Positions 2,515 to 58,432 of a stretch of DNA of 64,000 nucleotides are shown one piece after another. Positions within the stretch are counted from its first letter, which is position 1, and each line of letters starts with the position of its first letter. The position numbers and the translations under genes are program-made. Source of the DNA: a phage; the sequence record PZ295659.1. One strand, written 5' to 3'. Under the pieces are notes generated by a model that had not been told where the DNA came from, did no database searches, and saw only the letters and a list, made by a program, of their open reading frames with translations.

Positions 2515-2763
2515 TTATTCTTTTTCGCGAATAATAATTACTTGTTGAGGCTGCTGAGCAGATTTCTTTTCGGCAACGATAGACCAAATTAAAGTTCCAA
2601 TCCAACCAACCATCGTCCAGTTAAAGAGTAAAGATACAAAGAAGATTGCTGTTGTGCTTTTTGTGCCACGAATAAGTGCGATTACCCAAGGCAACATGTA
2701 AATGATGATTGAACCAATACCTGCGATTAAAACCGCTACTGAACTAGCTACGAATAATTCCAT
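2515..2763 (-). CDS. small membrane protein, superinfection-immunity (Imm)-like
   Basis: 82 aa, two hydrophobic helices; LPWVIALIRG...NWTMVGWIGTLIWSI resembles the Imm_superinfect family signature. Confidence 0.55.
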   Translation of the reverse strand: MELFVASSVAVLIAGIGSIIIYMLPWVIALIRGTKSTTAIFFVSLLFNWTMVGWIGTLIWSIVAEKKSAQQPQQVIIIREKE

Positions 2764-2824: not shown

Positions 2825-3193
2825 TTAATTAAATTTGTTTAAACGTTCAATACACTGGACGTAGTTATTTGCGATTTGTTTCTGGGTAGGCTCTTTACCA
2901 GTTGTTTCAATATAGCGAATGAATGCGATTTCAGTAGCCTGTAAGCAATGTTCTTTAACGCGCTGTTCTTTTGACATAGCTACGGTATCAGAATCACGAT
3001 AACGTTGAGCATGAGCATCAGCTTGAATCATTCGATTACCTACAGTAACCGGGTCTTCCACTTCAACTTTAGGTTGGTCATACTGTTTAACATTCGGATT
3101 GTAAATCAGTTGGCCAACGTTATTAGGGATAAAGCCGTGGGCACCACATCCGGTTAATCCAAATACCATTGCTAAAGCGATTAATTTTTTCAT
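2825..3193 (-). CDS. putative lipoprotein
   Basis: 122 aa; MKKLIALAMVFGLTGC signal peptide with lipobox LTGC. Confidence 0.55.
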   Translation of the reverse strand: MKKLIALAMVFGLTGCGAHGFIPNNVGQLIYNPNVKQYDQPKVEVEDPVTVGNRMIQADAHAQRYRDSDTVAMSKEQRVKEHCLQATEIAFIRYIETTGKEPTQKQIANNYVQCIERLNKFN

Positions 3194-4061: not shown

Positions 4062-5504
4062 TTAAAATTTTAACTCATTGGCTAAGCTATCTAGGTCAGC
4101 ACGTGTTGTTTTGGCTTTACCTACGCGTTCCGTACGATTCATCTCTGCCTGACGCATCTGAGCACCTGCGTTTTCATTTACTGTGTTAGGTGTGTTCATG
4201 CCTTCTTGCTCAATCTCAACCCATTTCTGGTTGCCTTTACGTACACCCATCAGGAATTTATTCCACTTATTCTTATCACCGTATCGTGATTTGATTTGTT
4301 TGATAAGTTGTTGTTCAGCTTGTGCAAGTTCTTCGGTTTCAATTACGGCCAACATGAAATCTGCCGTTGCTGGTAAACCTGCTGATTCTGCAATATCGCT
4401 CATGTTCATATCCGAAGCATCCCATGCTGCACGTCCTACTTGAGCTGCAGTCCATAGAACTGTTTCAGATTCTACTGCTAATGCACGAAGTTCTTCTGCG
4501 ATAGCTTTAACTAATGTGTAGCTATTTTCAGTGTAAACTCTGATACGACAAGACCCACAAATACCTAAGTAATCAACCATGATTACAGATGGCACAAAGT
4601 TCTTCTTGAGTTTCAATTCATTAAGCAATGCACGGAATGTATTAGCATTAGCTCCACCAGTAGGATACTGTTTAACTACTAAACGTCCTAATGTGGATTT
4701 TGAACGCCATTTTTCCATCTTGGCTTTATATTCAGCATAAGATACGTTACCATCATCGATATCATCAAGTGATACGTCAAGCATGTTTGCATCTATACGC
4801 TTAGCACAAACTTCTTCAGCCATTTCCATGGAAATATAAAGAACATTATGACCTGTTTGAAGATAATCTGCAGCAAGTGAACAAAGGCCTAAAGATTTAC
4901 CAACGTTAACACCGGCCATTAAAACATTCAGTGTACCGGTTTCAGCACCACCTTTAGTGATTTTATTCAGAATGTTTAATTTGAACGGGACCTTACGTGC
5001 TTTGTTCAGATAAGAAAGCCAGCGGGCTTCATAGTCTTCCATCCAGTCGTGTCCAACATAACTATCAAACGAAATTGAAAGTGCTTGACGCATAATATCA
5101 GGAATAGCTCCTACGTCAGGCATTTTCTTGTTACGTTGTTCTGGAGGTAGTTCAGCATTAGACTGAATCTCAATGATTTTGGATGTAGCATTATACATCG
5201 CTTTTTGCTGGACATATTTCTCAGTTTCTTTAACCAACCATTCGTGGTCTTCAGGAGTATCAGCCAATTTTTCAATTAGGTCTGAAGTTCCTTTATATTC
5301 GGCTTCAGTTAAAGAACTGTTATCTAAAGCCACCTTTAATGCGTTGATAGACGGCATTGCATTATATTCGTTAACGTGGCTCTTTATAATTTTAAAGACG
5401 TTTTTTGCCGGTCCACGCTCAAAATACTCAGAATCCATATAAGGCCAAACCTTAGAAAAATAAGCCTGGTCATATACTAGATGAGACAAAATAATTTCTA
5501 CCAC
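4062..5504 (-). CDS. 41: replicative DNA helicase gp41 (DnaB-like)
   Basis: 480 aa, near-colinear with T4 gp41 (MVEIILSHL...Walker A GVNVGKS...). Confidence 0.95.
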   Translation of the reverse strand: MVEIILSHLVYDQAYFSKVWPYMDSEYFERGPAKNVFKIIKSHVNEYNAMPSINALKVALDNSSLTEAEYKGTSDLIEKLADTPEDHEWLVKETEKYVQQKAMYNATSKIIEIQSNAELPPEQRNKKMPDVGAIPDIMRQALSISFDSYVGHDWMEDYEARWLSYLNKARKVPFKLNILNKITKGGAETGTLNVLMAGVNVGKSLGLCSLAADYLQTGHNVLYISMEMAEEVCAKRIDANMLDVSLDDIDDGNVSYAEYKAKMEKWRSKSTLGRLVVKQYPTGGANANTFRALLNELKLKKNFVPSVIMVDYLGICGSCRIRVYTENSYTLVKAIAEELRALAVESETVLWTAAQVGRAAWDASDMNMSDIAESAGLPATADFMLAVIETEELAQAEQQLIKQIKSRYGDKNKWNKFLMGVRKGNQKWVEIEQEGMNTPNTVNENAGAQMRQAEMNRTERVGKAKTTRADLDSLANELKF

Positions 5505-5513
5505 GATAACTCC

Positions 5514-5855
5514 TTAAAAGAATTTAAATTTTTTCTTGGTCCGTTCATTAAAAGCTTGTTGTACTTGCATTGTAACACATTTTTCAACATGTGGTGCAAG
5601 TTCTGCTTTTCTGTCCTGGTCAAGAACTGCAAAGTCCATTACGATTTTACCATCAACCCAGTCTAGTTTTGTAATATAGACTATATGATGAGAACCATCT
5701 TCAAGCGTAATCAGAATCTCTTGAATGACATTTTCCATTGCTGAACGGATAATTTTAAGAGATTCATTAAACACTCGTTCTTTGCGAATGTCTTCCCCTT
5801 CCGAAGAAGGGGATTCATCAACGATTTCTAGATTTAAATCATCGAGATTATTCAT
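5514..5855 (-). CDS. 40: gp40 head vertex assembly chaperone
   Basis: Syntenic small ORF between uvsX and 41; track ORF starts at a TTG, ATG at 5855 preferred. Confidence 0.6.
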   Translation of the reverse strand: MNNLDDLNLEIVDESPSSEGEDIRKERVFNESLKIIRSAMENVIQEILITLEDGSHHIVYITKLDWVDGKIVMDFAVLDQDRKAELAPHVEKCVTMQVQQAFNERTKKKFKFF

Positions 5856-7020
5856 CGAAATCTTCCATTTCGTCAAGGTCGTTTTCTATATCTGCTGCAG
5901 ACGGAGCATCAGAAGTTTTAACCGGAACTTTAGTTGTTGCTTTGCAATTAATAAGGTCGTTAACAGCGTCATCAACTTCTTTAATAGAAGAGATAGCACC
6001 TAGTTTATATTTAGTTTCAATTGCATCTCGGAAAGGTTTGTGTTTAAACAACGGTCCCCAGAATTCTACACAATCAGTAGCTTTAGCACGCCATGATTTT
6101 TCTTCACGAATCATTTCACCTGTTTCTTCGTCAAGGAATTCACGAGCATACCAACCAGCTTTAGGCTTAACTACAAAACCAATTTCAGTTGCCATTTCTA
6201 ACAAGCCACTGAATGGGTCAATACCACCATCAAAATTAACTGTGATCGGAAAAGTAGATTTCTCTTTAACCGTACGAGATTTTTCTGCTTTCAACGTGAA
6301 GTCATAACCGGTCAATTCTGTACCTTCTTTAACCTGACGTTTAGAGATAAAGAATACAGTGTTAGCAGAGTAAAGAATACCTGTACCACCACCCATAATC
6401 TCTTTAGGATACAATCCGCCAATTTCCATTGCGGTATGGTTAATTGCAACACACGGAATATCTTTAATAGTCAGATACGGGGTCACAATGCGGAACAGAG
6501 ATTTAAGTGCCTTAGCACGAGACATATCACCTACAACTTTCTCGTTCAATGCATCTTCGGTTTCTTTCTTAGATGCAGTATTACCGATTGAATCGATAAA
6601 GATAATAACTTTATCACCGCGTTCAATCGCGTCAAGCTGATTAGTCATATCAACTTTAAGTTGTTCGACAGATTGAATCGGAGTATGAACTACACGGTCT
6701 AAATCAACACCCATTGAACGAAAATAAGATTCTGAAGCACCAAATTCTGAATCATAGAACAAACAAATTGCATCTTTATATTTCTTCATATATGCTGCAA
6801 CCATGGTCAGACCAAACAACGTTTTAAAGTGTTTAGAAGGAGCAGCAAAAATAGTTAAGCCTGATTGCAACCCGGCATTCAGTGCACCACCTAATGCAAT
6901 ATTCAACATCGGAATACGAGTAGGGACTTCATCACGATTATTAAACAGCTTAGACTTAGTCAAGTCTGCAGTCATTTTAGAAGTAGAAGCTTTAATCAGA
7001 CGAGATTTTAAATCAGACAT
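5848..7020 (-). CDS. uvsX: UvsX RecA-like recombinase
   Basis: 390 aa, MSDLKSRLIKASTSK... RecA fold motifs, colinear with T4 UvsX. Confidence 0.95.
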   Translation of the reverse strand: MSDLKSRLIKASTSKMTADLTKSKLFNNRDEVPTRIPMLNIALGGALNAGLQSGLTIFAAPSKHFKTLFGLTMVAAYMKKYKDAICLFYDSEFGASESYFRSMGVDLDRVVHTPIQSVEQLKVDMTNQLDAIERGDKVIIFIDSIGNTASKKETEDALNEKVVGDMSRAKALKSLFRIVTPYLTIKDIPCVAINHTAMEIGGLYPKEIMGGGTGILYSANTVFFISKRQVKEGTELTGYDFTLKAEKSRTVKEKSTFPITVNFDGGIDPFSGLLEMATEIGFVVKPKAGWYAREFLDEETGEMIREEKSWRAKATDCVEFWGPLFKHKPFRDAIETKYKLGAISSIKEVDDAVNDLINCKATTKVPVKTSDAPSAADIENDLDEMEDFDE

Positions 7021-7120
7021 TGTATTTTTTCCATAGGCATCATTATATTTTACTCATGTTTAAAAGATAAGACGATTATATACTAAGGGTTATACAGCAT
7101 TTAAAACTTTAAACAGGCTC

Positions 7121-7669
7121 TTAACGAGCCCATTTGATAATTTCTGTAATCAAATTATTACGTTCGCTTGCATTAAATCCTATAACTTTGTTAGCACCAT
7201 CATGATTAAGTAATTGATACGTTTGGATTTCGTTATGAATTGCAAACTCTTCAAAATATGAAATGACTGTATTAAAACCGAACGAAGACAAAGTAATAAG
7301 GTCGTCTTCAAAACTTTCAGTCATTTCGTTACGTGTTAAAATAATTGTGAACACATCATGGTTTTGGCAAAGACGAACATAATCCTGTTCATAAACGTCA
7401 AGAACCGAGTCCGCATCTTGTCGAATACGTCCATAAACCCAGTTACTAATATATCCACGGTCTAACAGATAAATCTTAGTAGGGTCTAAATAATTCAACA
7501 TCGTTTCGAAACAGCCAACTTCATTTCGAGACTTAACATCGAAACGTCCATCAACTGTTCGTTTAGGGAAATCAATCTTTACATATCTTTCGCTAATTTC
7601 CATTATGTCATTAATGAAAGTTGTTTTACCAGCATTATCCGGGCCATCTACTAAAATAATTTTAGCCAT
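7121..7669 (-). CDS. P-loop nucleoside-monophosphate-kinase-like protein (Tmk-like)
   Basis: 182 aa; Walker A ILVDGPDNAGKTT and LLDRGYIS (DRY-like) motif of thymidylate-kinase-type kinases. Confidence 0.6.
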   Translation of the reverse strand: MAKIILVDGPDNAGKTTFINDIMEISERYVKIDFPKRTVDGRFDVKSRNEVGCFETMLNYLDPTKIYLLDRGYISNWVYGRIRQDADSVLDVYEQDYVRLCQNHDVFTIILTRNEMTESFEDDLITLSSFGFNTVISYFEEFAIHNEIQTYQLLNHDGANKVIGFNASERNNLITEIIKWAR

Positions 7670-7670
7670 T

Positions 7671-8570
7671 TTATTCCTCGATTACGACATCTTCATATTT
7701 AGGTATATTATACGGCGAAGAAATTAAAGCATTAAAGTAGATGAACTCACCAAGACCTGGATGGAATACTTCTTCAGGATTTTCGAAATATTGAATCTTC
7801 GGTCGTCCTTTAAGAATTTGATAGTACTCAGTTTTAGTTGGGTTAAAAATTCGAATCAGCGCTTCTTCAGGATACTTATTTCTGTCGAAGCTATTATTTG
7901 GATCGGTTATATAAAGCGGTTGGCCTAATTGAATTGCACATTCAACCACTTGTTCAAAACGATAACACGGGTCACTAATTCGAAATGGATGAAAAATACC
8001 ATCTAGATGAATAGGAGCCAAATCACCTACAAGACGCTGCATGATGGAAGGACGTATAACTTTCTGCGTTACGATAATCTTATTACCATCTGCACCTGCG
8101 TTAACCAGCACTTCTTTTTGACGTTCATTCAACACAGTAGTTTGAAGTGAACGATTAACCGACAACATGTCGGTTTTTAAGAATTCGTCAATATAAAAAC
8201 GTGGTTTATTAGGGTCCGCAGTGATATTGAAATTGAATTCCACATCAAAAGCGCCGTCATATCCAGTGATATCTGTGATTAGAAAATCACAATCATAATA
8301 AGCAATTAATGAATCAACCACAAATTCATTTTCAGACCAGAAATATTTACGAGTGTTATATGCGTTATCTTTATACCATAATGGAACAAACTTAAATTCT
8401 GGGAAAAGACGTTCACATTCTTTAATATCAGATGCATTACGTGGATATGTAATCACATCACCCGGATTAGCACGGTGCAAATGAAGTTGGAAGTTGCCAT
8501 CCTTAAGGATAGCATACTGTCCAGTTTCATAAGACCGCATACTCAAGATAGGTACGCGGAAAATAGCCAT
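7671..8570 (-). CDS. hypothetical protein; candidate DNA glycosyl(arabinosyl)transferase
   Basis: 299-aa ORF at the position T4 uses for beta-gt, no clear T4 bgt similarity; HPGLGEF region faintly GT-B-like. Confidence 0.5.
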   Translation of the reverse strand: MAIFRVPILSMRSYETGQYAILKDGNFQLHLHRANPGDVITYPRNASDIKECERLFPEFKFVPLWYKDNAYNTRKYFWSENEFVVDSLIAYYDCDFLITDITGYDGAFDVEFNFNITADPNKPRFYIDEFLKTDMLSVNRSLQTTVLNERQKEVLVNAGADGNKIIVTQKVIRPSIMQRLVGDLAPIHLDGIFHPFRISDPCYRFEQVVECAIQLGQPLYITDPNNSFDRNKYPEEALIRIFNPTKTEYYQILKGRPKIQYFENPEEVFHPGLGEFIYFNALISSPYNIPKYEDVVIEE

Positions 8571-9286
8571 TAGTCAAGGAATCCTTTAACATAATCAAAA
8601 TCACGTTCAAACACATGGGCACTTACCATGGTATGAGTATAATCACCAACTTCTACACCACATTCGTTAGCGATATAATGAAGTAATTTTCCTTGGAGAT
8701 AAAAATCCAACTGCATAACAACAGCACAGTTCTGAGAACGCATATGACAGTGGGTATAAAGCTTACCATCACGAATATAATAAGTCACTGAGTCAGTACA
8801 TGGATATTCAAGTGTTTCGTCCGAATCAAGCAAAGCCTGATCTGAACTTTCTAGAATTTGGAACACAACTCTTCGGGAGTTAGGCTTCTCTTTAAGTTCT
8901 TTTAGAAGAGCTGGTAATTGAGCCGCAATGCGAGGACCGTAGAAAGTGTTGAAGTTTGCAGGCAAAGCGTCTGATTTAGGTTTAGAAATAAATTTAGCGA
9001 CATTAGGATATGCCTTAAATGCTTCTTCTGCATCAGTACCACCAGAAATCATAAACTTCCAGAAGTCTTCGGCATATTCATAAGAGATGCGATTAATACG
9101 TGGATCGGTCATTTTGAATGATGAAGGGGTATCAACAACTACTGTCATAGACCCAATTTCATTACAACGTCCAATACGAGAATCAGTAACGAACTGTGGA
9201 TTTTCTAAAATTTCACGATTAACAGCTTTAAATGCGGATTGAAAATCTGCGGCTTTAATATATTTCATTGTGTTATGTTTTCCCAT
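8570..9286 (-). CDS. 42: deoxypyrimidine (dCMP) hydroxymethylase, thymidylate-synthase family
   Basis: NSRRVV, catalytic YPCTDSVTYYIRDGKL, MRSQNCAVVMQLDFY, ECGVEVGDYTHTMVSAHVFERDF align with TS/gp42 core; Asp rather than TS Asn in the pyrimidine-recognition position. Confidence 0.75.
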   Translation of the reverse strand: MGKHNTMKYIKAADFQSAFKAVNREILENPQFVTDSRIGRCNEIGSMTVVVDTPSSFKMTDPRINRISYEYAEDFWKFMISGGTDAEEAFKAYPNVAKFISKPKSDALPANFNTFYGPRIAAQLPALLKELKEKPNSRRVVFQILESSDQALLDSDETLEYPCTDSVTYYIRDGKLYTHCHMRSQNCAVVMQLDFYLQGKLLHYIANECGVEVGDYTHTMVSAHVFERDFDYVKGFLD

Positions 9287-9302
9287 GTTTACCTCAATAC
9301 AG

Positions 9303-9330
9303 TTATTATATACTCAATTCATAAAGCTTA
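9303..9330 (-). promoter_or_regulatory. possible MotA-dependent middle promoter upstream of gene 42
   Basis: Minus strand AAGCTTTA (MotA-box-like) followed ~12 bp later by TATAAT. Confidence 0.35.
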
Positions 9331-9406
9331 TTTGAATTTCTTAGCAATGTTGATATAACGTAAAGCTTCAGCATCGATACTTCCAAGAACACTATGAAGA
9401 AATGCA

Positions 9407-9568
9407 TCAGCGTAGTATTCTAGTTGAACAGGTTTCTTTAATCACTTTAGCCGCTTTAGTTTCAAACAGGCCCATAAGGGCCTTTTTAAGAATTTGTTCG
9501 TTGCTGTTAATTTTCGTAGTCAAAATCTCTTCATTAAGTTGGTGGTTAAAAGTTTTTCTAGAAATCAT
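9407..9568 (-). CDS. micro-ORF (53 aa) translationally coupled to upstream gene
   Basis: ATG overlaps stop of 386-aa gene (ATGA), GAGGT SD; MISRKTFNHQLNEEILTTKINSNEQILKKALMGLFETKAAKVIKETCSTRILR. Confidence 0.35.
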   Translation of the reverse strand: MISRKTFNHQLNEEILTTKINSNEQILKKALMGLFETKAAKVIKETCSTRILR

Positions 9569-10725
9569 TCCGGGTACCTCAAAGCGTCGTCAGAGTTAGT
9601 TATATCAATAATAGATATAGAGTTTTCTGCTAACCCATTTTTAGATAACTGACGTTTATAATATCTTTCACAATATGTACACGTCGTCCCGCAGATTTCA
9701 TTAGCACAATCGAAATCTGGATGTCTGAACCACCTTTTTTCTAAAAAGCCATCTAACAAAGAGGTTTCAATATTTACCGTATGTGAAAACTCGGTCTCAT
9801 TTTCAAGAGTGAAAATAGTCTCTAAAGGCTTCCACAATTCCAACAAATTACCTTCAAATTTTTCAGAAGCATAAGCTTCAAGAACTTTCAAAATGTAGTC
9901 TGTGCTACCTGTACGTCCTGAAACTTTGAATTGAGTGATACCAATATCATTATAAAGTTTCAAATCTTGAGGACGAACAAAACGAGTTCTCAACCAGTTA
10001 AATGGGTCTGTATCACGAGCTTTAATACAGTGTTGCATTGGATAGCCATTTAAGGATTTGGCATCATCTACTGTAACGTCGGTGCTATGGAAAATATAGC
10101 AAGAGTCACGATAGCTACAATGTGTTGTATACCCTTTACCAGCATTAGAACAGAACTCATTTACAAGAACTTCAAATATTATATTGTTCTTATTGCAAAA
10201 CTCTGCTGCACGCTTCAGGAAAGAAACTGAACGGTTCTTATGAATTCCACAGCAGACCTTTTTGATATTATATTGGTCATGCAAGTATTTGATTTGAGTT
10301 ACAGCATCGACATGTAGAATTGTTGAAACTTCAATCTCAATGTCTTTATTAACTTCACGAACAATTTCCATAACAACAGGGTTAGCGATAGTAATACGCC
10401 ATACGCCTATTGACCAAAGATACTGAACATAATCCTGAATAGCTTTCTTCTTCCACTCAACTAGTTCTCTTTTTGAACCAGGATTTATCGTGTTGAGTGT
10501 ATAGTTAAAGCAAATACCTAATTCGTTACAACGTTTAACATAATCTTCTAACATCTTTTTGTCAACGTCAGGAAGCCTAAAATCAGGTCTGGCTGCTACA
10601 AAAGCCATTTCTCTTGTAGAGCCGTATACTTCATTTATCAAGCTATTAGGATAAGTTTTATTGAGCTCTACGATTTTATCAAGAAGAGCTAAATCAAAAT
10701 TCGTTCCGATTTTAAAAGTATTCAT
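9565..10725 (-). CDS. Cys-rich enzyme of unknown function (U32-like layout, C-terminal CX4CX3CX2C cluster)
   Basis: 386 aa; N-terminal region resembles peptidase-U32-type TIM-barrel proteins; C-terminal CANEICGTTCTYC; several central Cys. Confidence 0.5.
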   Translation of the reverse strand: MNTFKIGTNFDLALLDKIVELNKTYPNSLINEVYGSTREMAFVAARPDFRLPDVDKKMLEDYVKRCNELGICFNYTLNTINPGSKRELVEWKKKAIQDYVQYLWSIGVWRITIANPVVMEIVREVNKDIEIEVSTILHVDAVTQIKYLHDQYNIKKVCCGIHKNRSVSFLKRAAEFCNKNNIIFEVLVNEFCSNAGKGYTTHCSYRDSCYIFHSTDVTVDDAKSLNGYPMQHCIKARDTDPFNWLRTRFVRPQDLKLYNDIGITQFKVSGRTGSTDYILKVLEAYASEKFEGNLLELWKPLETIFTLENETEFSHTVNIETSLLDGFLEKRWFRHPDFDCANEICGTTCTYCERYYKRQLSKNGLAENSISIIDITNSDDALRYPE

Positions 10726-10779
10726 TTTTACATCTCGCGTTAATTGATGCGATGGTTTTTGCAGGTCTTACTTAAATTA

Positions 10780-11181
10780 TTATAGATTCGGTTTATATGA
10801 TTTAAATGTTTCGAATTCGCCTTTATTCATAAGAGCTTTGAATTCGTCAGGACGCATAGCTTTGTCGTCGATAATCCAATCATATACTGGTTTATGTGTT
10901 AGCAAATTATGGTACTTCAAGCCAATGTTTGCCAAGTTCTGAATCAGACTTGGGAGAATGTCAATTGCTATACGACCAGGACCTACTGACTTCATACCGC
11001 GAGCAGTGTAAAGCGTTATTGTATGCCCTGCATCATACAGGGCATTAATGGCAGACACCATTTCGACGTCTGGTTTGAAGTTCACGTAATCACGATTGTT
11101 ATTCCACTCGGTTATACAATCATCGACATCAAAACAAAGATTAAGCATGTTTTCTACACGGTGCATTAGATTCGTTCCCAT
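10780..11181 (-). CDS. HAD-superfamily phosphatase-like protein
   Basis: 133 aa; motif I FDVDDCIT, motif II LYTAR, motif IV IIDDK. Confidence 0.6.
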   Translation of the reverse strand: MGTNLMHRVENMLNLCFDVDDCITEWNNNRDYVNFKPDVEMVSAINALYDAGHTITLYTARGMKSVGPGRIAIDILPSLIQNLANIGLKYHNLLTHKPVYDWIIDDKAMRPDEFKALMNKGEFETFKSYKPNL

Positions 11182-12851
11182 TGATGAGTGATATCGCCAC
11201 CGATTGGACGATAGGAAACACCAGTTTCTTTATCAGTTAGTACCCATTTACCAGGATTTTTTGTAATCAGAGTAGCCGTTACAGGTTCTGCTACGTCATA
11301 ACTAATAGAGCCGTCTTGAAGTACACGGCCCATGTTACGTAATTGCTTAGTCAGAAGTTCCATACCTTTATAATATGCGGCTACCGCTTTAAGTGGATTA
11401 TTCTTGAAATAACCACCTAATGCAATCCAGATAATTGCTACAGCCAAATGATGATACTCGTTAAACGAACTCATCTTTCCATATTTGTAAACTAATGGAT
11501 TGATGTTAATAGTCACATTACAAGTTGTTTCATCAATAGTAAACTGACCCCAGGTCGGATTAGCGTTGAATTCATCATAACCTGAAACAGCGTAAAGCAC
11601 TTTAGCTTCATCATACAATTTTGGCCCGTAAATCTTGGTTTCACCAAAATATCCACGAGGGTCGATAAACTTGACTTCACCATTATCAGTAATCATAGTA
11701 TTACTGAAGTTCGGGTCACCATGAATAACAGAGTACTGTCCCTGAGAACGGTTATGATAACGAATAAGGTGTTCTAAAGCTTGTTTCAACATTGGCTTCA
11801 GACGTCCAATCTTAGTGTAGTTCACATGTGTGATTTTACCAAATGAATCAATCAATGGTTGAATACTTTCACAACGATCAATAACTTTCGTATAGAATTC
11901 TTTAGTGAAATCACGACGAACAGTTTCAGGACTTACAAAATAAGTGTCTGTGCTGAATTTCAGTGCATCTAAAATTGCATCAACAATTTGTGGACGAGCA
12001 AGACTCGATTTGGATTTAATATATTCAAATGCCGGCTTACCTTTAATGCGTTCCATTTCAAAGTTATTTTCATTAACAGAAACTAACTGAGGAACTGAAT
12101 CTGATTTCACTTTAAGATACCATGAAATCTCATCTTTCTGAAGAGCTCGACCCTGTTCGGTTAATGCGAATTTAGTTACAGTTTCTTCACCAATTTCAAC
12201 TGCATTAAAACTACGATTAAGTTCACGAACTTCATGAGCTTTTTCAAGTTTAGGCATATCACCTAAATCAATTAGATTCATAAGCTCTGATTTATTGAAT
12301 GCGCTGCCGTAAAGGAATTCTACGAAATCACGCCCTTTGCAGTATTCATGAATTTCCTCATCAGTAGAACCCATATAGAATTCCCAGTCTTTGAACTGAT
12401 AAATTCCTACAACATTACCACCTGTTGAACCTACGTTAGTGATATTTTCACCGTCGAAATTATATCGACATTCGTCACCCTTAACATAGATTGCGTTAAC
12501 ATTCCAAGACCATGAACCAAAATCAGGAATAATATCGCACCAGTTAACAATTACATTATGGCTGTCTAAATCTTTGTGTAATTTAGCAAGAGCATAAGCA
12601 GAACCATACGCTTCATCAACTGTACGAATAGTCACATTGAACCCTTCTTGCTCACAATAAGCTCGAACAGTTTCAGCAAATTTTGAATGAACTACTACAA
12701 TAATTTCATCTGCGCCAAGGTCAGAATAAATTGTATACAAATTGCTCAGAATAGTGTCTTGTTTATAGTTAACAAGCACCTTAGGAATATGATGCGTTAT
12801 TGGATACAAACGAGTTGCCAGTCCAGCACCAAGAATAACAGCTTTTTTCAT
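11166..12851 (-). CDS. bifunctional sugar-1-phosphate nucleotidyltransferase / APH-family anomeric sugar kinase
   Basis: 561 aa; N-terminal VILGAGLATRLYPIT (G-x-G-T-R-L NTase motif); C-terminal VIHGDPNFSN...KFIDPRG (Brenner motif and DxG of choline/aminoglycoside kinase fold). Confidence 0.8.
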   Translation of the reverse strand: MKKAVILGAGLATRLYPITHHIPKVLVNYKQDTILSNLYTIYSDLGADEIIVVVHSKFAETVRAYCEQEGFNVTIRTVDEAYGSAYALAKLHKDLDSHNVIVNWCDIIPDFGSWSWNVNAIYVKGDECRYNFDGENITNVGSTGGNVVGIYQFKDWEFYMGSTDEEIHEYCKGRDFVEFLYGSAFNKSELMNLIDLGDMPKLEKAHEVRELNRSFNAVEIGEETVTKFALTEQGRALQKDEISWYLKVKSDSVPQLVSVNENNFEMERIKGKPAFEYIKSKSSLARPQIVDAILDALKFSTDTYFVSPETVRRDFTKEFYTKVIDRCESIQPLIDSFGKITHVNYTKIGRLKPMLKQALEHLIRYHNRSQGQYSVIHGDPNFSNTMITDNGEVKFIDPRGYFGETKIYGPKLYDEAKVLYAVSGYDEFNANPTWGQFTIDETTCNVTININPLVYKYGKMSSFNEYHHLAVAIIWIALGGYFKNNPLKAVAAYYKGMELLTKQLRNMGRVLQDGSISYDVAEPVTATLITKNPGKWVLTDKETGVSYRPIGGDITHQWERI

Positions 12852-12892
12852 GTTGTGGTCCTCATTGGTAAGTAGGAGTATTGTACACTATT

Positions 12893-13036
12893 CTAGTTAA
12901 AGCATTCATACTTTGCTTGTAGTCCAATCATAATCCATCCGATTACAAGTGTTGGAATCATTACTGGAGCCGTTAAGCTCCAGTAGATAGTCATGACAAG
13001 CATCAATAGTAAAAGTCCTATTGTTATTGCTTTCAT
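12893..13036 (-). CDS. micro-ORF encoding 47-aa hydrophobic peptide
   Basis: ATG overlaps stop of SIS gene (ATGA); MKAITIGLLLLMLVMTIYWSLTAPVMIPTLVIGWIMIGLQAKYECFN; followed by GAGGA SD of NTase/kinase gene. Confidence 0.4.
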   Translation of the reverse strand: MKAITIGLLLLMLVMTIYWSLTAPVMIPTLVIGWIMIGLQAKYECFN

Positions 13037-13668
13037 TGTTCGCCTCGTAACATGGCACCTAGTGCACCGCCAGGGTGGAACTTAAGGAAGTCATTAGAGG
13101 TAAATCCACGTTCAGACGAAAGGTTGATAGCAAACGTATCGATAAGCGCTAACAACAATGTAGTGGACATGGTCGGAGCCAGAGAATTCTCATCAACCTC
13201 TACTGCGATGCCTGTACAGAACGTATAATCAAAAAGAGCTTCATATTCTTGTGGAATGTCTGGGTTACAATGCAACAGAATCTGTTTGACGTTCGGACGA
13301 ATCATTTTAAGATGCTTAGCCACGCCTATCATTTCTTCAGTTTTACCAGAACGACTAATATGAATCAACACATCATTAGGCGCAATGAATCCTGCATCAC
13401 CGTGAGAATAATGCCCGGTGTTCAAGTACATACTAGGGATACCGAGTGAAGCAAATGTTTCAGAAGCTTTAGTTGCAATATTAGCATTCTTACCAACACC
13501 TGTAATAATTACTCGGCTTTCATAATTACTAAGCCCTGGGCGTCGAAGAGTTTCTAGAATAGCATTATAACGAGCAGGGTTTTGACTAATTACTTTGGCC
13601 ATAGCGGCCAAAGAAGAAGCTTGTTTTATGATTGCGTCAATAGCGATAGTAATAGGAGTAGTTTTCAT
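13033..13668 (-). CDS. D-arabinose-5-phosphate isomerase (KdsD/GutQ-like, SIS domain only)
   Basis: 211 aa; IITGVGKNANIATKASETFASLGIPSMYLNTGHYSHGDAG parallels KdsD GMGKSGHIG.K.AATFASTGTPSFF.HPGEASHGDLG. Confidence 0.8.
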   Translation of the reverse strand: MKTTPITIAIDAIIKQASSLAAMAKVISQNPARYNAILETLRRPGLSNYESRVIITGVGKNANIATKASETFASLGIPSMYLNTGHYSHGDAGFIAPNDVLIHISRSGKTEEMIGVAKHLKMIRPNVKQILLHCNPDIPQEYEALFDYTFCTGIAVEVDENSLAPTMSTTLLLALIDTFAINLSSERGFTSNDFLKFHPGGALGAMLRGEQ

Positions 13669-13708
13669 ATTTCTCTCATTTAATTAGTTTACCGTCCATG
13701 ACATTATA

Positions 13709-16420
13709 TCAAAAATCGAACATATCGAAAAGAGATGCTTTCTTCTCGTAATCGAGTTTCGCTGCTGATGTGAATCCTTCAAGTGGTTTAATAAATGTCT
13801 TCTCAAGGAGAACAGTGTAGTCCATCCAATGAAGTACGTCGTCTTTAATTAAATCTGTGATTTCAGTACCAGAAGGCCATGCGATACATTTATCACCGAA
13901 TGGGTTTCCTTCACGTAAAGGCAGAACATATACTTTTTCACCTTCTACAACTTGCGGTGCATCGATATTACCTTTGATGGCCCGGTTATATGTCAGAATT
14001 CCACGAATATGGAACGGACATTTAGGACCAGGGAATCCACCTACGTCATATTTAGCGATGTTATTCGCAGAAGATACCGACGCGATGCTAATATAATTCA
14101 ATTGACGGAATTCTTTTTCAAACTCTTTAAAATATTCTTGTAATGATTCTTCACCTTCTTGAAGCATACGACGAATACATTCTTTAAGAGCTTTCTGTAC
14201 GGCTTTAGGAGTCGAAGATTTCTGCGTCTCTAGACCCATGATTTTGAGTTTAGGCTCAGCGTAACGAGTACCTTCCATATCCCACACGTTTAATGCATAA
14301 CGTTTCTTACCAGTCCAGAATCCACCAATACCTTTAGAACCAAGTGGAGGCCCAGCGATAGCTTCTCGGTCCATGAACATTAAGTGTTGTTTATTGTTCA
14401 TGTATTCACACATTTCACGGAAACCTCTATCAATAGCTGGTTCCATACGTTCACGTGCAAACTTATCTAAGAAGTCTACCCAGTGGTTGGTATCACGGAA
14501 TTTAGATTCACCAACCTTATCGATAATTTTATCAGCAGATACGTAAATAGAGTCTGTATCACCATAAAGAACGAAAGCTTCACCTTCTGTACCACAAACT
14601 TCGTTCAGATATTCATTAACTTTACGTTCAATCCACTGTAAAGCCATTTGCCCAAATGTTGTGATTGCAGTAGCATTACGCAAATCATAATAACGGAACC
14701 AAACGTTGCCAAGTGCACCATAAAGTGAGTTGATAAGCAATTTACGGTTAATTTGAGCAGTCATACCTGCAACTTCGGTACGTTGAGCTCTAAACAACAT
14801 TTCATTAAGAGATTTAGCAGACAACTTTTTAATCTTTTCTTTAATCTCATCACTGAAGTCGAAACGATAATCAACATCTAATGGTTCGTCAACAGAAAGA
14901 TTAGGATTATGCAATGCCTCTTTAATTATTTCACCGTTACGTTGAGCTGCAAGCATGTAACCTTTATGTTCTTTACGTTGATTAAAGACCTTAGTGATTT
15001 CAGTTGGAACTACACCATCACGGTCTTTATAATACATCATGCCGTTAGGAGAGCAACTGTACACATCTGAAGGACGTTCAGCAACAGCGTTAATATAATC
15101 ATGCAATGGAGCTACTTTAAACGTTCCTGCTATTGTTTCCGGGCTAATATTCACTTGGCGAATAATACTTGGATACAGAGATGTAAGGTCGAAACTCATT
15201 ACATATTTGTATCGATTTGGAATAGGTTCCTTAACAAAAGCACCAGGATAAGGTTGAACCGGGTGAGAACGACCTTGTGGAATCACCTTGTTCTGCTCTT
15301 TAAGGCTATTAAAAATAATAGCATCCCATGTTTTAATTGGGCTAAACACAGATTGAATCTGTATCTTAGCATAATAACCCATGTCCAAACTCAAGTTGAT
15401 GAACTGACGCTTAGCATCAATTTGCAATACACGATACACGTCGATAATGTTATAAGAAATATATCGTTGGTGATTGCTTTCACGAAGCTTAGAAATAGGG
15501 CCGTCATATTTCAGTTTACCAACGTTCAATTCAAATTCTGAAATGTAATCCAGAGAATATGACGGCTGATTGGTAAAAGAGAATTTTTTGTAAAGGTCAA
15601 TGTAATCAAGAACAGAGATACCGAACAATGTAATGATTTCACGAGAACCATACATGTTTTCGATAACTTTAACACGAGTTTTACGATGTGGTGATAAACG
15701 TTTCGCAGTAGATTCGCCAAAAATATTCTTGATTCGGTTATACACATATGGAATATCAAATGACTCAACGTTCCATCCAGTCAAAATGACAGGAGTTTTC
15801 TGTTGCCAGAAGTTGAGATATTCCATCAACAATTCTTTTTCGTTATCGAACGGCATATAAATGATTTTATCGATAATTTCGGATGGAACTTCATCACCGC
15901 CTTGTTCTTGAAGCTTGGCCGCAATTTCGATAGACCATTCTTCTACATTACCATATGGAGAATTCAATAGATCAAATACGTAGAACCTGTCGTCAATTGA
16001 GTCATAATGGGTGATAGCATCAATCGGATGTTTTGCTTGTGACGGCTCAGGGAACCCATCCGGGGATGTTACTTCGATGTCGAAGTTAGCCACACGAATT
16101 TTTGTATGGTCGTATTTGATTTCATAGTTATAAGTGTCAGACAAATACGCCAATTTGAAATCGTCCATGCCAAGTGCTTCAAGTCCGATATCTTCCATGC
16201 GTTTAATCCATTGGGAGGCATCACGCATATTGGCGAACAACTTACGAGTACACGGCTTACCATAGATATCAAAATATTTCGTGGCCTGACTTTCAGGACA
16301 ATGTGCAAACAATGATGGTTTATACTCTACTTCACGAGTACGTTCACGGCCGTTAGAATCGATGTAACGTTCAAAAATTGAATCACCAATCTGTTCAACC
16401 GTTAAGTAAAATTCTTTCAT
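13709..16420 (-). CDS. 43: DNA polymerase gp43 (family B)
   Basis: 903 aa; exo motifs FDIE, YNIIDV; pol motifs SLYPSII, YGDTDS; matches RB69 gp43 as I recall it. Confidence 0.97.
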   Translation of the reverse strand: MKEFYLTVEQIGDSIFERYIDSNGRERTREVEYKPSLFAHCPESQATKYFDIYGKPCTRKLFANMRDASQWIKRMEDIGLEALGMDDFKLAYLSDTYNYEIKYDHTKIRVANFDIEVTSPDGFPEPSQAKHPIDAITHYDSIDDRFYVFDLLNSPYGNVEEWSIEIAAKLQEQGGDEVPSEIIDKIIYMPFDNEKELLMEYLNFWQQKTPVILTGWNVESFDIPYVYNRIKNIFGESTAKRLSPHRKTRVKVIENMYGSREIITLFGISVLDYIDLYKKFSFTNQPSYSLDYISEFELNVGKLKYDGPISKLRESNHQRYISYNIIDVYRVLQIDAKRQFINLSLDMGYYAKIQIQSVFSPIKTWDAIIFNSLKEQNKVIPQGRSHPVQPYPGAFVKEPIPNRYKYVMSFDLTSLYPSIIRQVNISPETIAGTFKVAPLHDYINAVAERPSDVYSCSPNGMMYYKDRDGVVPTEITKVFNQRKEHKGYMLAAQRNGEIIKEALHNPNLSVDEPLDVDYRFDFSDEIKEKIKKLSAKSLNEMLFRAQRTEVAGMTAQINRKLLINSLYGALGNVWFRYYDLRNATAITTFGQMALQWIERKVNEYLNEVCGTEGEAFVLYGDTDSIYVSADKIIDKVGESKFRDTNHWVDFLDKFARERMEPAIDRGFREMCEYMNNKQHLMFMDREAIAGPPLGSKGIGGFWTGKKRYALNVWDMEGTRYAEPKLKIMGLETQKSSTPKAVQKALKECIRRMLQEGEESLQEYFKEFEKEFRQLNYISIASVSSANNIAKYDVGGFPGPKCPFHIRGILTYNRAIKGNIDAPQVVEGEKVYVLPLREGNPFGDKCIAWPSGTEITDLIKDDVLHWMDYTVLLEKTFIKPLEGFTSAAKLDYEKKASLFDMFDF

Positions 16421-19832: not shown

Positions 19833-19874
19833 TTAATTTGATGTGGTCATTATAACCACATCGTGTTAAAGCAT

Positions 19875-21563
19875 TTATGAAACAGTCATTACAGTAAATC
19901 GTCCAACTTTGCTCATCTGAAGATGTTGTCCATAACGTTGAGGGTCATGGTCTCGATGAGAGATAATGAACACGTTAGTATTTTGTAAACTTCCAAGAAT
20001 GGTATCTATAGCCTTAACAGCCTCAGAATCGACAGCACCATCAAAAACCTCATCAAGAATCAGAGTGTTGATTTTAACACCAGAGACCTTTTCAGCAATA
20101 TCTCGCCATGTAAACAACAATGCGATATCGATACGTGCCTTTTCACCTTGACTAAATGAAGCATAACTGAAATCTTCACGGCCACGTGATTTTATAGATT
20201 CATTGAATTCTTCGTCAATAGAAAACACGTAATCAGCTTCCATGATTTTAAGATAATAGTTAATCTGCTTGTTGAACAGAGGCACATATTTTTTAATGAT
20301 AGCACCTTTAATACCAGAATCTTTTAACATATCTGTGATAATACCACGATGGTATTTTTCAAGAACGATATCCGATTTTGTTTTAATGATTTTATCAAGT
20401 TCTTTTTGAAGCAAAGCTATCTCATCGGCATGGTCGATAAATTCCGCCGAGGCTTGTTCTATTGCAGCTTTAACTTTCTTAGCTTTATCAATAGTGGCAA
20501 TCATTGCTTGTTTCTTGGTACGAATATCAGATGCAAGGTCCTGTTTAGTCTTAACATTAGCTCTATATTCGTCCACTAGGACACTCAGATTATCTCTGTG
20601 ACATGTAAGTTGCTCGAATGAGTGATTACATTCATGAAGCTTATCGGTAATCTTAGAGACAATAGGGTCACCCTGGTGCAACTGTGACGCACAAGTAGGA
20701 CATGTGCCACCGTCATGATACATCTTAATAACTTTGTTATATGAGTCGATTTTAGATTTAATCAAGAATGCTTCTTGTCCGATCTTGTTGAATGCCTCAG
20801 TAGGGTCTTCATCAAGAACGATATTAAGTAGTCGCTCATTAGCTTCTTCGATTTCTGCTTTTAATGAACGAGCTTCTTTGGCTAGGTCGTCATACATATT
20901 CTGTAGACGCGCTACATTATCACCAGATAATTTCTTTTGACGTTCGATATTCTCGTTATAAATCTTAATTTGTTGGATAATACCATCTTTCTTGGCATCG
21001 AGAACTTGTCCCTGGGAATTAAGTTCTCGAACTTGAGACTTATTGATTTTATCCATTTCAGCGAGTGTGCCGACTTCTAAAAGGTCTTCGACAAGTTTTC
21101 TACGAGCAGGGGTGCTAAGAGCCATGAAAGGGGTATACCCTGCCGTCCCAAGCACAACGATTTGTTTAAAAGACGCGTATGACATTCCGATGCTACGTTC
21201 AAATTCTTCTTGGAAGTCACGACTGCTGGCAGATTCATCAAGACGAACACCGTCAACGGAGATTTCGAAAATATTGGGCTTTTGGCCACGTTTAATGAAG
21301 TATTTTTTACCATCGAATTCCATCCAAAGCTCAACTAAGAGCTCTTTCTTGTTCGTGCTATTAATGATTTGCCCTTTCTTAACATCACGAAATGGTTTAC
21401 CGAAAAGTCCGAAAGTAATGGCTTCTAACATCGTAGATTTACCACCGCCGTTTTTACCAGTGATTAATGTCTTTTGGACTTTATCTAATTGGATGTCAAT
21501 AGGATTCCCACCTACCGACATGATGTTTTGATAACGAACACGATTTAATTTAAATGATTTCAT
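19875..21563 (-). CDS. 46: recombination endonuclease subunit gp46 (Rad50/SbcC-like)
   Basis: 562 aa, Walker A GKNGGGKST, coiled-coil middle, signature and D-loop; colinear with T4 gp46. Confidence 0.95.
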   Translation of the reverse strand: MKSFKLNRVRYQNIMSVGGNPIDIQLDKVQKTLITGKNGGGKSTMLEAITFGLFGKPFRDVKKGQIINSTNKKELLVELWMEFDGKKYFIKRGQKPNIFEISVDGVRLDESASSRDFQEEFERSIGMSYASFKQIVVLGTAGYTPFMALSTPARRKLVEDLLEVGTLAEMDKINKSQVRELNSQGQVLDAKKDGIIQQIKIYNENIERQKKLSGDNVARLQNMYDDLAKEARSLKAEIEEANERLLNIVLDEDPTEAFNKIGQEAFLIKSKIDSYNKVIKMYHDGGTCPTCASQLHQGDPIVSKITDKLHECNHSFEQLTCHRDNLSVLVDEYRANVKTKQDLASDIRTKKQAMIATIDKAKKVKAAIEQASAEFIDHADEIALLQKELDKIIKTKSDIVLEKYHRGIITDMLKDSGIKGAIIKKYVPLFNKQINYYLKIMEADYVFSIDEEFNESIKSRGREDFSYASFSQGEKARIDIALLFTWRDIAEKVSGVKINTLILDEVFDGAVDSEAVKAIDTILGSLQNTNVFIISHRDHDPQRYGQHLQMSKVGRFTVMTVS

Positions 21564-23059: not shown

Positions 23060-23100
23060 ATTATTTCCTCATTAGTTAATTCATTCTATCATCCGTTTAT

Positions 23101-23132
23101 AAAGCAAAAAAAAAGGAACTCCGAAGAGTTCC
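23101..23132 (-). terminator. rho-independent terminator
   Basis: Minus strand GGAACUC-UUCG-GAGUUCC followed by U9. Confidence 0.6.
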
Positions 23133-30331: not shown

Positions 30332-30801
30332 TTTAAACTCTTTCTAAGCTGCTTTTTGAATGAAGCTATTAATTGTGTTTTGGTATCAGATTCATTATAT
30401 TCAAATCCTCTTTGAAGCATCTCAGCCATCATTTCCTCTTTACCTAGTCTTGAGAACTCTTTAGTTTTGTCTGGAACAAAATTAGGATGGATATTATTAT
30501 CAGAATAATCTTGTTTCAAATAAGCAAGAAGAGCTTCAAGCCATTCGAGGTAGTCGACATCACGTCCTTTAAGACCGGAACGGTTGAACTTATGCTTCAT
30601 TTGACCTTCTGCTGCGTTGCACAGATTACAGAGTAACCCACGAACTCTACCTGCTTTTGGCCCGTTTAATTCGTGGTCGTGGTCAAGATGGTTACCTTGA
30701 ACATCAGGGTCTAATTCACGGTGGCAAATAGGACACTTACCATTCTGTGCATCATAAAATTTTTGTTTTTCTTCTTTATATTTTGTGCCTGATAATAACA
30801 T
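30328..30801 (-). CDS. 49: endonuclease VII (Holliday junction resolvase) gp49
   Basis: 157 aa; CPICHRELDPDVQGNHLDHDHELNGPKAGRVRGLLCNLCN as in T4 endo VII. Confidence 0.95.
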   Translation of the reverse strand: MLLSGTKYKEEKQKFYDAQNGKCPICHRELDPDVQGNHLDHDHELNGPKAGRVRGLLCNLCNAAEGQMKHKFNRSGLKGRDVDYLEWLEALLAYLKQDYSDNNIHPNFVPDKTKEFSRLGKEEMMAEMLQRGFEYNESDTKTQLIASFKKQLRKSLK

Positions 30802-39787: not shown

Positions 39788-40330
39788 TTATTTCAAAGTC
39801 GGGATAATGGAATCAAGATAAGCTTTAAGAGCAACTGCTTCATCTTTGTCTAATGTAACGATATGTTGACGAAGGTCATCAATTTGACGAATAACTACGA
39901 CATCACCATCTTCATAAGAAGGATTAACGCCTAGGACTGTTGTATAGTCAGGGCGGTCCTGATTTGTAATAAAAGCATTACGGCATTTAGCCCATTGAAG
40001 TTTGGCCTTTTTGGCTGTTTCAGATTCCACGAATTCTTTCACCTTAGTGACGAATGTTTTCCAATTATTAATAGAAAAACATTCGTCTTCAGTTTCGATA
40101 TTAACCCCACTATAAAGTCCACGATAAAAACGAACTTGAAGGTCTTCGTCAATGTTAATTACAGATGCATGGCCCGGTGGATTGAGTTTCAAAATCTTGT
40201 CCAGTTCCATAGGAAGAATAGTAACCGCATCATCTTCTTGCGTCAGAACGTAAGCACAACCACGTTTTTCTATACATAAATCACCAAACAACTCAGTCGT
40301 TTCAATTACAGTTTTCATATTATTCACCAA
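39788..40330 (-). CDS. hypothetical protein
   Basis: 180-aa ORF. Confidence 0.5.
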   Translation of the reverse strand: MVNNMKTVIETTELFGDLCIEKRGCAYVLTQEDDAVTILPMELDKILKLNPPGHASVINIDEDLQVRFYRGLYSGVNIETEDECFSINNWKTFVTKVKEFVESETAKKAKLQWAKCRNAFITNQDRPDYTTVLGVNPSYEDGDVVVIRQIDDLRQHIVTLDKDEAVALKAYLDSIIPTLK

Positions 40331-40499
40331 TTAAAGTTTCAACAAAATTCACCAAAGCATTCTGGCAAGCATCAACCTGATTTTCATAAAAGTCTCCGTT
40401 ATCATTTACCGCATGATAAGCTACATCATTCAAATCTGAATCGGCTTCACGTAAGTCACGGATAAGGTCCATCAATTTATTAGCTTGTTCACGGGTCAT
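40320..40499 (-). CDS. small ORF (59 aa)
   Basis: MTREQANKLMDLIRDLREADSDLNDVAYHAVNDNGDFYENQVDACQNALVNFVETLIGE; just below track cutoff. Confidence 0.35.
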   Translation of the reverse strand: MTREQANKLMDLIRDLREADSDLNDVAYHAVNDNGDFYENQVDACQNALVNFVETLIGE

Positions 40500-40623
40500 T
40501 TTACCATACTCGTTTCAATAAGATTCACTATGCCGTTTACCATGTTATAAGTAAACATCGGATAATTGTATTGTACTACAACATAAGCGATAAGCAAAAG
40601 TTTCATTTTGTTCTCCATTTGTT

Positions 40624-58353: not shown

Positions 58354-58432
58354 TAAATAACTTTCTATTATTAAAGGCACTTTAGAGCACCTTTGGTAAT
58401 AGAGGGTATGAATTAATAATAACACATAATTC

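Follow-up and report, generated by a model that had tools for sequence, protein, structure and literature searches.

Phages with RB69-type DNA carry, between UvsX and the gp43 DNA polymerase, a set of genes now credited with making arabinosylated 5-hydroxycytosine (PMC13326640). In this scheme, for which we also have domain matches, gp55 is an arabinose-5-phosphate isomerase and gp52:53 an AfhE-like bifunctional kinase/nucleotidyltransferase; gp51 is an AfhF-like phosphatase, gp48 a ThyA homolog making 5-hydroxy-deoxycytidine monophosphate (5-hydroxy-dCMP), gp46:47 a glycosyltransferase and gp45 a kinase, and the U32-like gp50 has no assigned role (PMC13326640). Two small genes of T4-like phages also have earlier names. 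RB69p049, the product of RB69 ORF049c, was listed in a 2021 comparative paper among the proteins presumed to be involved in modification, with no known homologs (PMC8056088), and gene 42.1 is named in RB32 (ORF043c, YP_802985) and VR7 (gp050, ADR32425). Here we describe two short open reading frames (ORFs) embedded in the modification cluster of an RB69-like (Mosigvirus), T4-type phage, within a 64,000-nucleotide (nt) stretch of sequence record PZ295659.1 (hereafter, the window). One encodes 47 amino acids (aa; 12893-13036, minus strand) and the other 53 aa (9407-9568, minus strand). Both are very probably ordinary, catalogued small genes of T4-like phages, the first a member of the gp42.1 family and the second a truncated allele of ORF049c.

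A sequence-only reading of the window had described the two ORFs as beginning with an ATG that overlaps the stop codon of the preceding enzyme gene and as having Shine-Dalgarno sequences (SDs) of their own, and both features are present. The 47-aa ORF starts in an ATGA (13033-13036, minus strand) shared with the arabinose-5-phosphate isomerase (SIS) gene, the homolog of RB69 gp55 (13033-13668, minus strand). A GAGG (13043-13046, minus strand) stands 6 nt before its ATG, within the upstream coding sequence, and purine-rich counterparts of this GAGG also occur in other genera. The 53-aa ORF begins inside an ATGA that shares the TGA stop of the peptidase-U32-like gene, the homolog of RB69 gp50 (9565-10725, minus strand). 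Its GAGG (9577-9580, minus strand) is found 8 nt upstream, is made by Leu-Arg codons of the U32-like gene, and has a weaker counterpart or none in other genera. Among ATGA-led frames of shuffled sequence, 3.6% run on for 47 or more codons and 2.3% for 53 or more. Such a layout is routine, not special, in Escherichia phage PHB12, the closest annotated relative: over the corresponding 50 kb, its annotation shows a 4-nt overlap at 17 of 95 junctions and an overlap of any length at 34 of 95, and 10 of 94 genes encode 60 aa or fewer.

The novelty of the two ORFs is low, as both are members of catalogued hypothetical-protein families. Their counterparts are annotated in PHB12 (QBP05664, QBP05668) and in RB69 (ORF049c, ORF054c). 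Pfam and NCBIfam scans of the two ORFs gave no match, and PHROGs alone recognized both. For gp42.1, RB69ORF049c and RB69ORF054c, the literature turned up only the RB69p049 table entry; a T4 ribosome-profiling study of small proteins was not found there.

The 47-aa ORF aligns end to end with the phrog_3610 profile (E = 6.8e-27; residues 1-47 against positions 1-47 of 47), its relatives carry the precomputed Pfam domain PF26865, and a tblastn search with it reached 772 phage records in many T4-like genera. It agrees with gp42.1 of RB32 and VR7 in this full-length profile, in length, hydrophobicity, motifs and ATGA overlap, and in lying on that side of the base-modification genes which faces gene 43. 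We compared 27 gp42.1 loci from at least six genera (twelve Mosigvirus loci, T4, RB32, VR7, Bp7, ZX14, phiR1-RT and IMG/VR contigs). The gene is intact in all 27, at 45-50 aa, and all 27 share the ATGA junction, in which its ATG overlaps the stop of imm or of the isomerase. The family motifs IYW, P-x-M-(I/V)-P-T and Q-x-K-(Y/F)-x-C-(F/I)-(N/W), taken from 13-19 aligned members of several genera, are present in the 47-aa ORF. Across genera, synonymous sites are saturated (proportion of differences, pS, 0.72) and the nonsynonymous proportion (pN) is 0.25, giving a nonsynonymous to synonymous rate ratio (dN/dS) of about 0.12 in frame; of the other five frames, the codon-complement antisense one stands at 0.36 and the remaining four at 0.87-2.4. 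In the protein collection, all three Mosigvirus gp42.1 clusters are 47 aa long and truncated forms are absent. Judged from these sequence comparisons, the 47-aa ORF is a genuine, strongly conserved small protein-coding gene.

The 47-aa peptide is strongly hydrophobic (grand average of hydropathy, GRAVY, 1.36), with two hydrophobic stretches around P-x-M-I-P-T and a QAKY-x-C-F/I-N tail, and from this hydrophobicity it is predicted to be a membrane protein. The fold could consist of two hydrophobic segments flanking a P-x-M-I-P-T turn, or of one long helix. The protein would insert in the host inner membrane and target the envelope, with no dependence on arabinose chemistry; we judge such an envelope-directed role the likeliest, though only tentatively. 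Exhaustive HMMER searches with the peptide returned three true family representatives only, all from this phage group, and no fusions to larger proteins. The searches also hit proteins of 481-1084 aa in numerous short stretches, which we discounted as low-complexity, hydrophobic matches.

The gp42.1 gene is missing from the annotation of the T4 reference record (NC_000866). The T4 ORF encodes 49 aa, MKSKIIAALLLILMIIISIYYSVTVPLMIPTIILGWSLLLLQVKYECIN, at 4228-4377 on the minus strand (locus L022), and nearly fills the 153-nt gap between imm and gene 42. It starts in an ATGA over the imm stop and ends in TGAGG, which serves as the gene 42 SD. The gene is also unannotated in ZX14, phiR1-RT, and many T2- and T4-like records. 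In the RB69 record, ORF054c (loci L001/L002, 6396-6539) is labeled “similar to T4 42-imm intercistronic region” and annotated as 36 aa from an internal ATG; the RB69 DNA encodes the same 47-aa protein as the window, with an ATGA overlap with ORF055c.

The gene 5′ of gp42.1 is imm in T4, RB32, VR7 and Bp7, and the isomerase in Mosigvirus, Tegunavirus, ZX14 and others. Unlike the T4-type loci, therefore, the window has the isomerase and not imm upstream, and a 41-nt spacer with a MotA-type motif follows the ORF. The ancestral upstream neighbor is the superinfection-immunity gene, imm; in RB69-like phages imm has moved off and the isomerase has taken its place at the same ATGA junction. The imm gene of the window (2515-2763) lies about 10 kb from the 47-aa ORF, with no coupled ORF after it. 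It stands side by side with imm.1 (2825-3193) and spackle (sp in the PHB12 annotation; 2158-2451) on the minus strand, a group placed downstream of gene 41, whereas T4 imm lies between genes 43 and 42. In Mosigvirus, the superinfection-exclusion genes thus appear gathered together, with gp42.1 left at the old place. T4 Imm (83 aa) is, like gp42.1, a small hydrophobic early/middle protein, and it is the ATGA-coupled neighbor of gp42.1 in T4, RB32, VR7 and Bp7. However, the two show no sequence similarity and the window imm is 10 kb off, and a functional link between them is only a guess.

The T4 MotA-dependent middle promoter consists of a MotA box, TGCTT(T/C)A, followed after 11-13 bp by a -10 element, TAnnnT. 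An exact match to this pattern, TGCTTTA and TACAAT separated by 12 nt (12880-12904, minus strand), lies at the end of the 47-aa ORF, ahead of the next gene, which encodes the 561-aa AfhE-like nucleotidyltransferase/kinase (RB69 gp52:53; 11166-12851, minus strand), has a GAGG of its own and starts 41 nt after the ORF stop. The MotA box falls in the last codons of the 47-aa ORF (E-C-F-N; GAA TGC TTT AAC TAG), and the motif would drive the AfhE-like gene. Eleven matches to the pattern occur in the window against 1.95 expected, ten of them on the minus (coding) strand. A motif of this type occupies this position in 12 of the 14 arabinose-type loci that carry the ORF and is absent in T4, RB32 and VR7; in T4, RB32, VR7 and Bp7, the next gene starts 7-9 nt after the 42.1 stop. 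The remaining minus-strand motifs of the window are at 7707-7731, 11574-11599, 13430-13453, 19849-19873, 20389-20413, 23083-23106, 30394-30419, 43299-43324 and 58416-58440. The enrichment is about five-fold, and several motifs lie just 5′ of gene starts and some within coding sequence. In non-Mosigvirus relatives (loci L011, L021, L010, L014, L015, L018, L006 and L037), an inverted repeat, GGTACA-ATGGA-TGTACC, is conserved within 30 nt after the gp42.1 stop and overlaps the TACAAT -10 element; the window version of this repeat, GTGTACAATAC, is diverged.

The 53-aa ORF matches the phrog_8601 profile (E = 2.9e-27) at positions 1-50 of 79 only. It occupies the same locus as RB69 ORF049c (NP_861739), is likewise coupled to the U32-like gene by an ATGA, and shows 93-98% identity with ORF049c across residues 1-45; unlike RB69 ORF049c, the window copy contains an extra A, ends at 53 aa and lacks helix 3. 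The site reads GAAA (9433-9436, minus strand) where RB69 and phiE142 read GAA, such that the window and PHB12 have one extra A after codon 45 (AAAGAAACC versus AAAGAACC). Residues 1-45 are native, residues 46-53 are out of frame, and a stop follows. An out-of-frame remnant at 9328-9432 (minus strand) encodes the conserved helix 3, PVQLEYYADAFLHSVLGSIDAEALRYINIAKKFK, followed by its stop, and a TTG to CTA change 3′ of the frameshift is synonymous in the RB69 frame only. Elsewhere (RB69, phiE142 and other genera), ORF049c is 74-79 aa long, with 57 aa in a PM2-like phage. Its homologs are found in Mosigvirus and in a few other cluster-bearing phages (Tegunavirus, Pectobacterium PM2-like phages and Serratia phage 92A1), are absent from about half of the cluster-bearing lineages, and always start in the ATGA that ends the U32-like gene; the window shows the same synteny.

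The part of ORF049c that lies beyond the break includes the best-conserved helix of the family. AlphaFold models ORF049c with a confidence score (pLDDT) of 86.8 as three helices (H1-H3; residues 4-20, 23-39 and 46-77), and the break coincides with the H2-H3 loop. The family has 13 invariant positions, four before the break (M1, L27, L31, F35) and nine beyond it (Y51, D54, A55, F56, H58, S59, G62, E67, R70). The extra A after codon 45 thereby removes helix 3, the holder of nearly all invariant residues. The 53-aa product has lost the C-terminal motif YY-x-DAF-x-HS-xx-G-xxxx-E-xx-R, which is still encoded out of frame, and shows neither the full 74-79 aa nor the three helices of the family. A comparison of twelve Mosigvirus ORF049c alleles gives a dN/dS of 0.14 for the RB69 frame, against 0.9-1.0 for the two alternative frames. 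The N-terminal 45 codons give 0.25, and the C-terminal part of intact alleles gives 0.07-0.22. The 53-aa ORF is a +1-frameshifted, disrupted allele of ORF049c and not an intact family member, and its product is most likely a remnant that has lost all or part of its function.

Two ways in which this stretch might encode more than a stump were considered and rejected. A 33-aa third-frame ORF (9306-9407, minus strand), whose start is part of a TGATG where the 53-aa ORF ends, shows no coding signal and is probably spurious, given the dN/dS of 0.9-1.0 in the alternative frames. Programmed +1 frameshifting or internal re-initiation might rescue helix 3; there is no slippery motif, and no in-frame ATG, GTG or TTG past the break. 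The +2 and nonsense alleles of other phages would, moreover, each demand another mechanism of recoding.

Truncations of ORF049c are frequent and recurrent. In the protein collection, 21 clusters (133 members) are at 79 aa and 12 clusters (about 96 members) at 42-58 aa, in a view that reveals only stumps of about 42-62 aa. At the DNA level, the alleles include +A on several flanking haplotypes, +AG in RPN187, -1 in ECCR664, and an additional +T in HY126 that leaves a 40-aa stump. Nonsense alleles are found at codon 48 (CAA to TAA), codon 50 (GAA to TAA) and codon 52 (TAC to TAG), with the downstream codons untouched. In NHEP36, an in-frame 9-nt deletion lies between two TAAAG repeats at the frameshift hot spot (locus L030, about 4630). 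This deletion could restore the frame on a +A ancestor; the sister haplotype RPN187 has the +AG (L029, about 4635). Most disruptions fall at codons 45-52, in the H2-H3 hinge, a clustering that could mean selection for removing helix 3 and is suggestive only.

The two junctions resemble the ATGA coupling of T4-like polycistronic transcripts, with an identical junction and an SD inside the upstream cistron. Both ORFs would be small cistrons of an early or middle transcription unit of the T4 kind; terminating ribosomes of the upstream cistron could re-initiate at the ATGA, and free ribosomes could also start there. In RNA folding, the start regions of the 47- and 53-aa ORFs were weaker than shuffled controls (z = +1.30 and +1.21), and neither the start regions nor the spacers showed significant structure. 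Since the start regions are unmasked, re-initiation is possible and not enforced by a masking hairpin, so that coupling in the window is permitted rather than enforced. A generic sigma-70 promoter and terminator scan of 9200-13100 gave nothing above shuffled expectation. Downstream of the 53-aa ORF, 120 nt separate its stop from the start of the ThyA-homolog gene (8570-9286, minus strand), and the two do not overlap. A middle-promoter-like element, GCTTTA and TATAAT separated by 11 nt (9305-9327, minus strand), comes directly behind the ancestral ORF049c stop, 19 nt short of the ThyA-homolog gene; this relaxed pattern has 7 matches in the window against 0.24 expected. Most of this apparently intergenic gap is therefore dead C-terminal coding sequence plus a promoter-like element, given the helix 3 remnant and the motif at 9305-9327.

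The sequence-only reading had suggested that the ORFs could be genuine small proteins, possibly membrane-associated partners of the pathway, or else coupling devices that tune the expression of downstream enzymes. Both families are indeed conserved and coding, and the 47-aa frame is intact throughout its relatives; the 53-aa form, however, is a disrupted allele of a 79-aa protein. The membrane proposal very probably holds for the strongly hydrophobic 47-aa peptide and fails for the 53-aa ORF, which is not hydrophobic and belongs to a family of soluble three-helix proteins. That both peptides are dedicated partners of the arabinose pathway would fit their location inside the cluster, their ATGA coupling to pathway genes, the ORF049c homologs that follow the U32-like gene in Mosigvirus, Tegunavirus, PM2-like and 92A1 phages, and the 2021 listing of RB69p049 as a presumed modification protein (PMC8056088). 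Yet gp42.1 is present in T4 and RB32, which carry glucosyl-hydroxymethylcytosine, and sits beside imm in these phages as well as in VR7 and Bp7. It is absent from five cluster-bearing loci and from Serratia phage 92A1, which PMC13326640 cites among phages with arabinosylated 5-hydroxy-deoxycytidine (5hodC) in their DNA, and is therefore not specific to the arabinose pathway. ORF049c, in turn, is lacking in about half of the lineages and truncated in many isolates, including HY126. The same paper reports HY126, whose ThyA homolog, AfhE and AfhF were characterized, to have DNA with arabinosylated 5hodC (PMC13326640); the modification therefore does not require full-length ORF049c, and ORF049c is dispensable for making the modified base. 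We consider a dedicated partnership of both peptides very unlikely. It is highly improbable, too, that they are coupling devices or leader peptides whose translation, and not whose product, sets the level of the downstream enzyme. The stop/start overlap at the upstream end would suit such a device, as would the T4, RB32, VR7 and Bp7 loci, where the 42.1 stop lies so close to the next start that an imm-42.1-42 relay is conceivable. Leader peptides and regulatory upstream ORFs are likewise short ORFs ahead of an enzyme gene; unlike them, the ORFs of the window encode conserved peptides, lack an attenuator and stop short of the downstream start. Here the gaps are 41 and 120 nt, no terminator or significant structure was found by the folding or the 9200-13100 scan, and each downstream enzyme gene, AfhE-like and ThyA homolog, has its own SD and MotA-type promoter motif; the GAGG and motif of the AfhE-like gene argue against the 47-aa ORF as a relay there. 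Amino acids are conserved where synonymous sites are saturated, which a pure spacer ORF would not show.

The identity of the 53-aa ORF as a broken allele has its own competitors. It could instead be a selected, functional short isoform, the loss of helix 3 being repeatedly favored while helices 1 and 2 keep a function, driven by escape from a host defense that senses helix 3 or by the lack in Mosigvirus of a partner chorismate mutase. At least eight distinct disruptive alleles speak for this, most of them at codons 45-52 (three haplotypes with +A, the +AG allele, and stop codons at positions 48, 50 and 52), as do the memberships of truncated and full-length clusters (about 96 versus 133) and the constraint on the N-terminal 45 codons. 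Against it stand an ascertainment bias, as only stumps between about 42 and 62 aa would show up as separate clusters, and the existence of earlier disruptions (HY126 at 40 aa, the -1 of ECCR664 at about codon 27, P0042 and P0025). The invariant residues also lie in the part that is lost, and the C-terminal part of intact alleles is under strong constraint. On balance a selected short isoform is rather unlikely. A sequencing or assembly error, such that the window truly encodes the 79-aa protein, finds a precedent in the original RB69 record, which has acknowledged frameshift errors in the neighboring genes 46/47 and 52/53. However, the site is a run of only 2-3 A, the allele is linked to specific flanking single-nucleotide polymorphisms, an identical 68-nt +A stretch occurs in seven other, independently sequenced phage records and at least four further records share its +1 length, and 53-aa clusters of 4-27 members appear in metagenomic assemblies; error is exceedingly improbable. 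The idea that the two ORFs are chance open frames in intergenic DNA, to which their shortness and the spurious 33-aa neighbor lend some color, deserves next to no credence and is refuted by frame-specific purifying selection, cross-genus conservation and PHROG matches for both. A broader proposal would make ORF049c a polymorphic accessory of a prephenate-dependent U32 hydroxylase module, joined in other genera by a phage chorismate mutase, from which helix 3 is repeatedly selected away through defense sensing or partner loss, and gp42.1 a universal T-even membrane protein made in fixed ratio with Imm; this combination is quite unlikely.

Some observations weigh against the account of a conserved gp42.1 membrane protein and a broken ORF049c allele. 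AlphaFold, given a shallow alignment of four sequences, models the 47-aa peptide as one continuous long helix, leaving the hairpin a candidate topology only, and fold searches with ORF049c returned generic helical matches only, with no lead to a function. In T4, RB32, VR7 and Bp7, the 42.1 stop is sometimes inside the next SD (TGAGG), and a translation relay is conceivable there. The C-terminal remnant of ORF049c shows no decay, with a dN/dS of 0.047 among frameshifted alleles; this fits a recent truncation or recombination with intact alleles, and the sequence may also continue to be used. Finally, we infer the translation of both ORFs from their evolution only.

A similar chain of small ORFs noted elsewhere in the window, at 40320-40606, is real and spans 40320-40618. 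It consists of a 40-aa ORF (40496-40618, minus strand; phrog_3515, with 854 T4-like phage records) and a 59-aa ORF (40320-40499, minus strand; Pfam DUF7438, phrog_4859) that overlaps it by an ATGA. The TAA of the 59-aa ORF is 1 nt before the ATG of the next gene (TAAtATG, start 40318). All four small ORFs of the window (47, 53, 40 and 59 aa) are annotated in PHB12, each with a PHROG match.

Positions 7000-13800 of the window share 98.6% nt identity with PHB12 and 97.8% with RB69, and phage F2 shares 98% with the window. The genes between UvsX (5848-7020) and the gp43 DNA polymerase (13709-16420), which flank them, are the arabosyl-5-hydroxycytosine DNA-modification cluster. The phosphatase gene has two candidate ATG starts (10780-11181 or 10780-11166); with the AfhE-like gene, the longer form shares 16 nt and the shorter form 1 nt, and relatives are annotated both ways.

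In most non-Mosigvirus relatives, a gene for a type II chorismate mutase directly follows the U32-like gene or the ORF049c homolog, usually with an ATGA overlap. These genes score 36-47 bits with Pfam CM_2 (cut-off 27) and are found at 6161-6400 in L010 and L011, 6158-6397 in L014, 10232-10537 in L006 (phiR1-RT g048), 6382-6618 in L021, 6325-6567 in L009, 6158-6502 in L016 and L017, 6399-6785 in L019, 6530-6904 in L020 and 4740-4997 in L031. Mosigvirus is without the mutase gene. The 114-aa mutase of L016 and L017 has an N-terminal extension, MRRINH.MNE, that resembles the start of the ORF049c homolog, M.RINHKLNE, and this suggests a deletion that fused the ORF049c homolog with the mutase. The U32-family proteins RlhA and TrhP are factors for prephenate- and iron-sulfur-cluster-dependent C5 hydroxylation of cytidine and uridine (PMC5727448; PMC6599085). 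Taken with the 5-hydroxycytosine base of these phages, this chemistry and the mutase pairing suggest a role for gp50: by analogy, gp50-like proteins may provide a second, prephenate-dependent route to 5-hydroxycytosine, possibly without O2.

For annotation, these findings are of modest value: by the account of the sequence-only reading, the gene track of the window misses what are two catalogued small genes, and the T4 record omits a conserved 49-aa gene. The apparent 53-aa micro-ORF is in truth a broken gene and deserves an annotation that says so, and neither ORF need any longer be counted among candidate essential components of the arabinosyl-5-hydroxycytosine pathway. The questions raised instead are how gp42.1 acts at the membrane and why nature repeatedly truncates ORF049c. 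The pairing of the U32-like gene with chorismate mutase may outweigh the micro-ORFs in worth, as it hints at the role of the one unexplained enzyme of the cluster.

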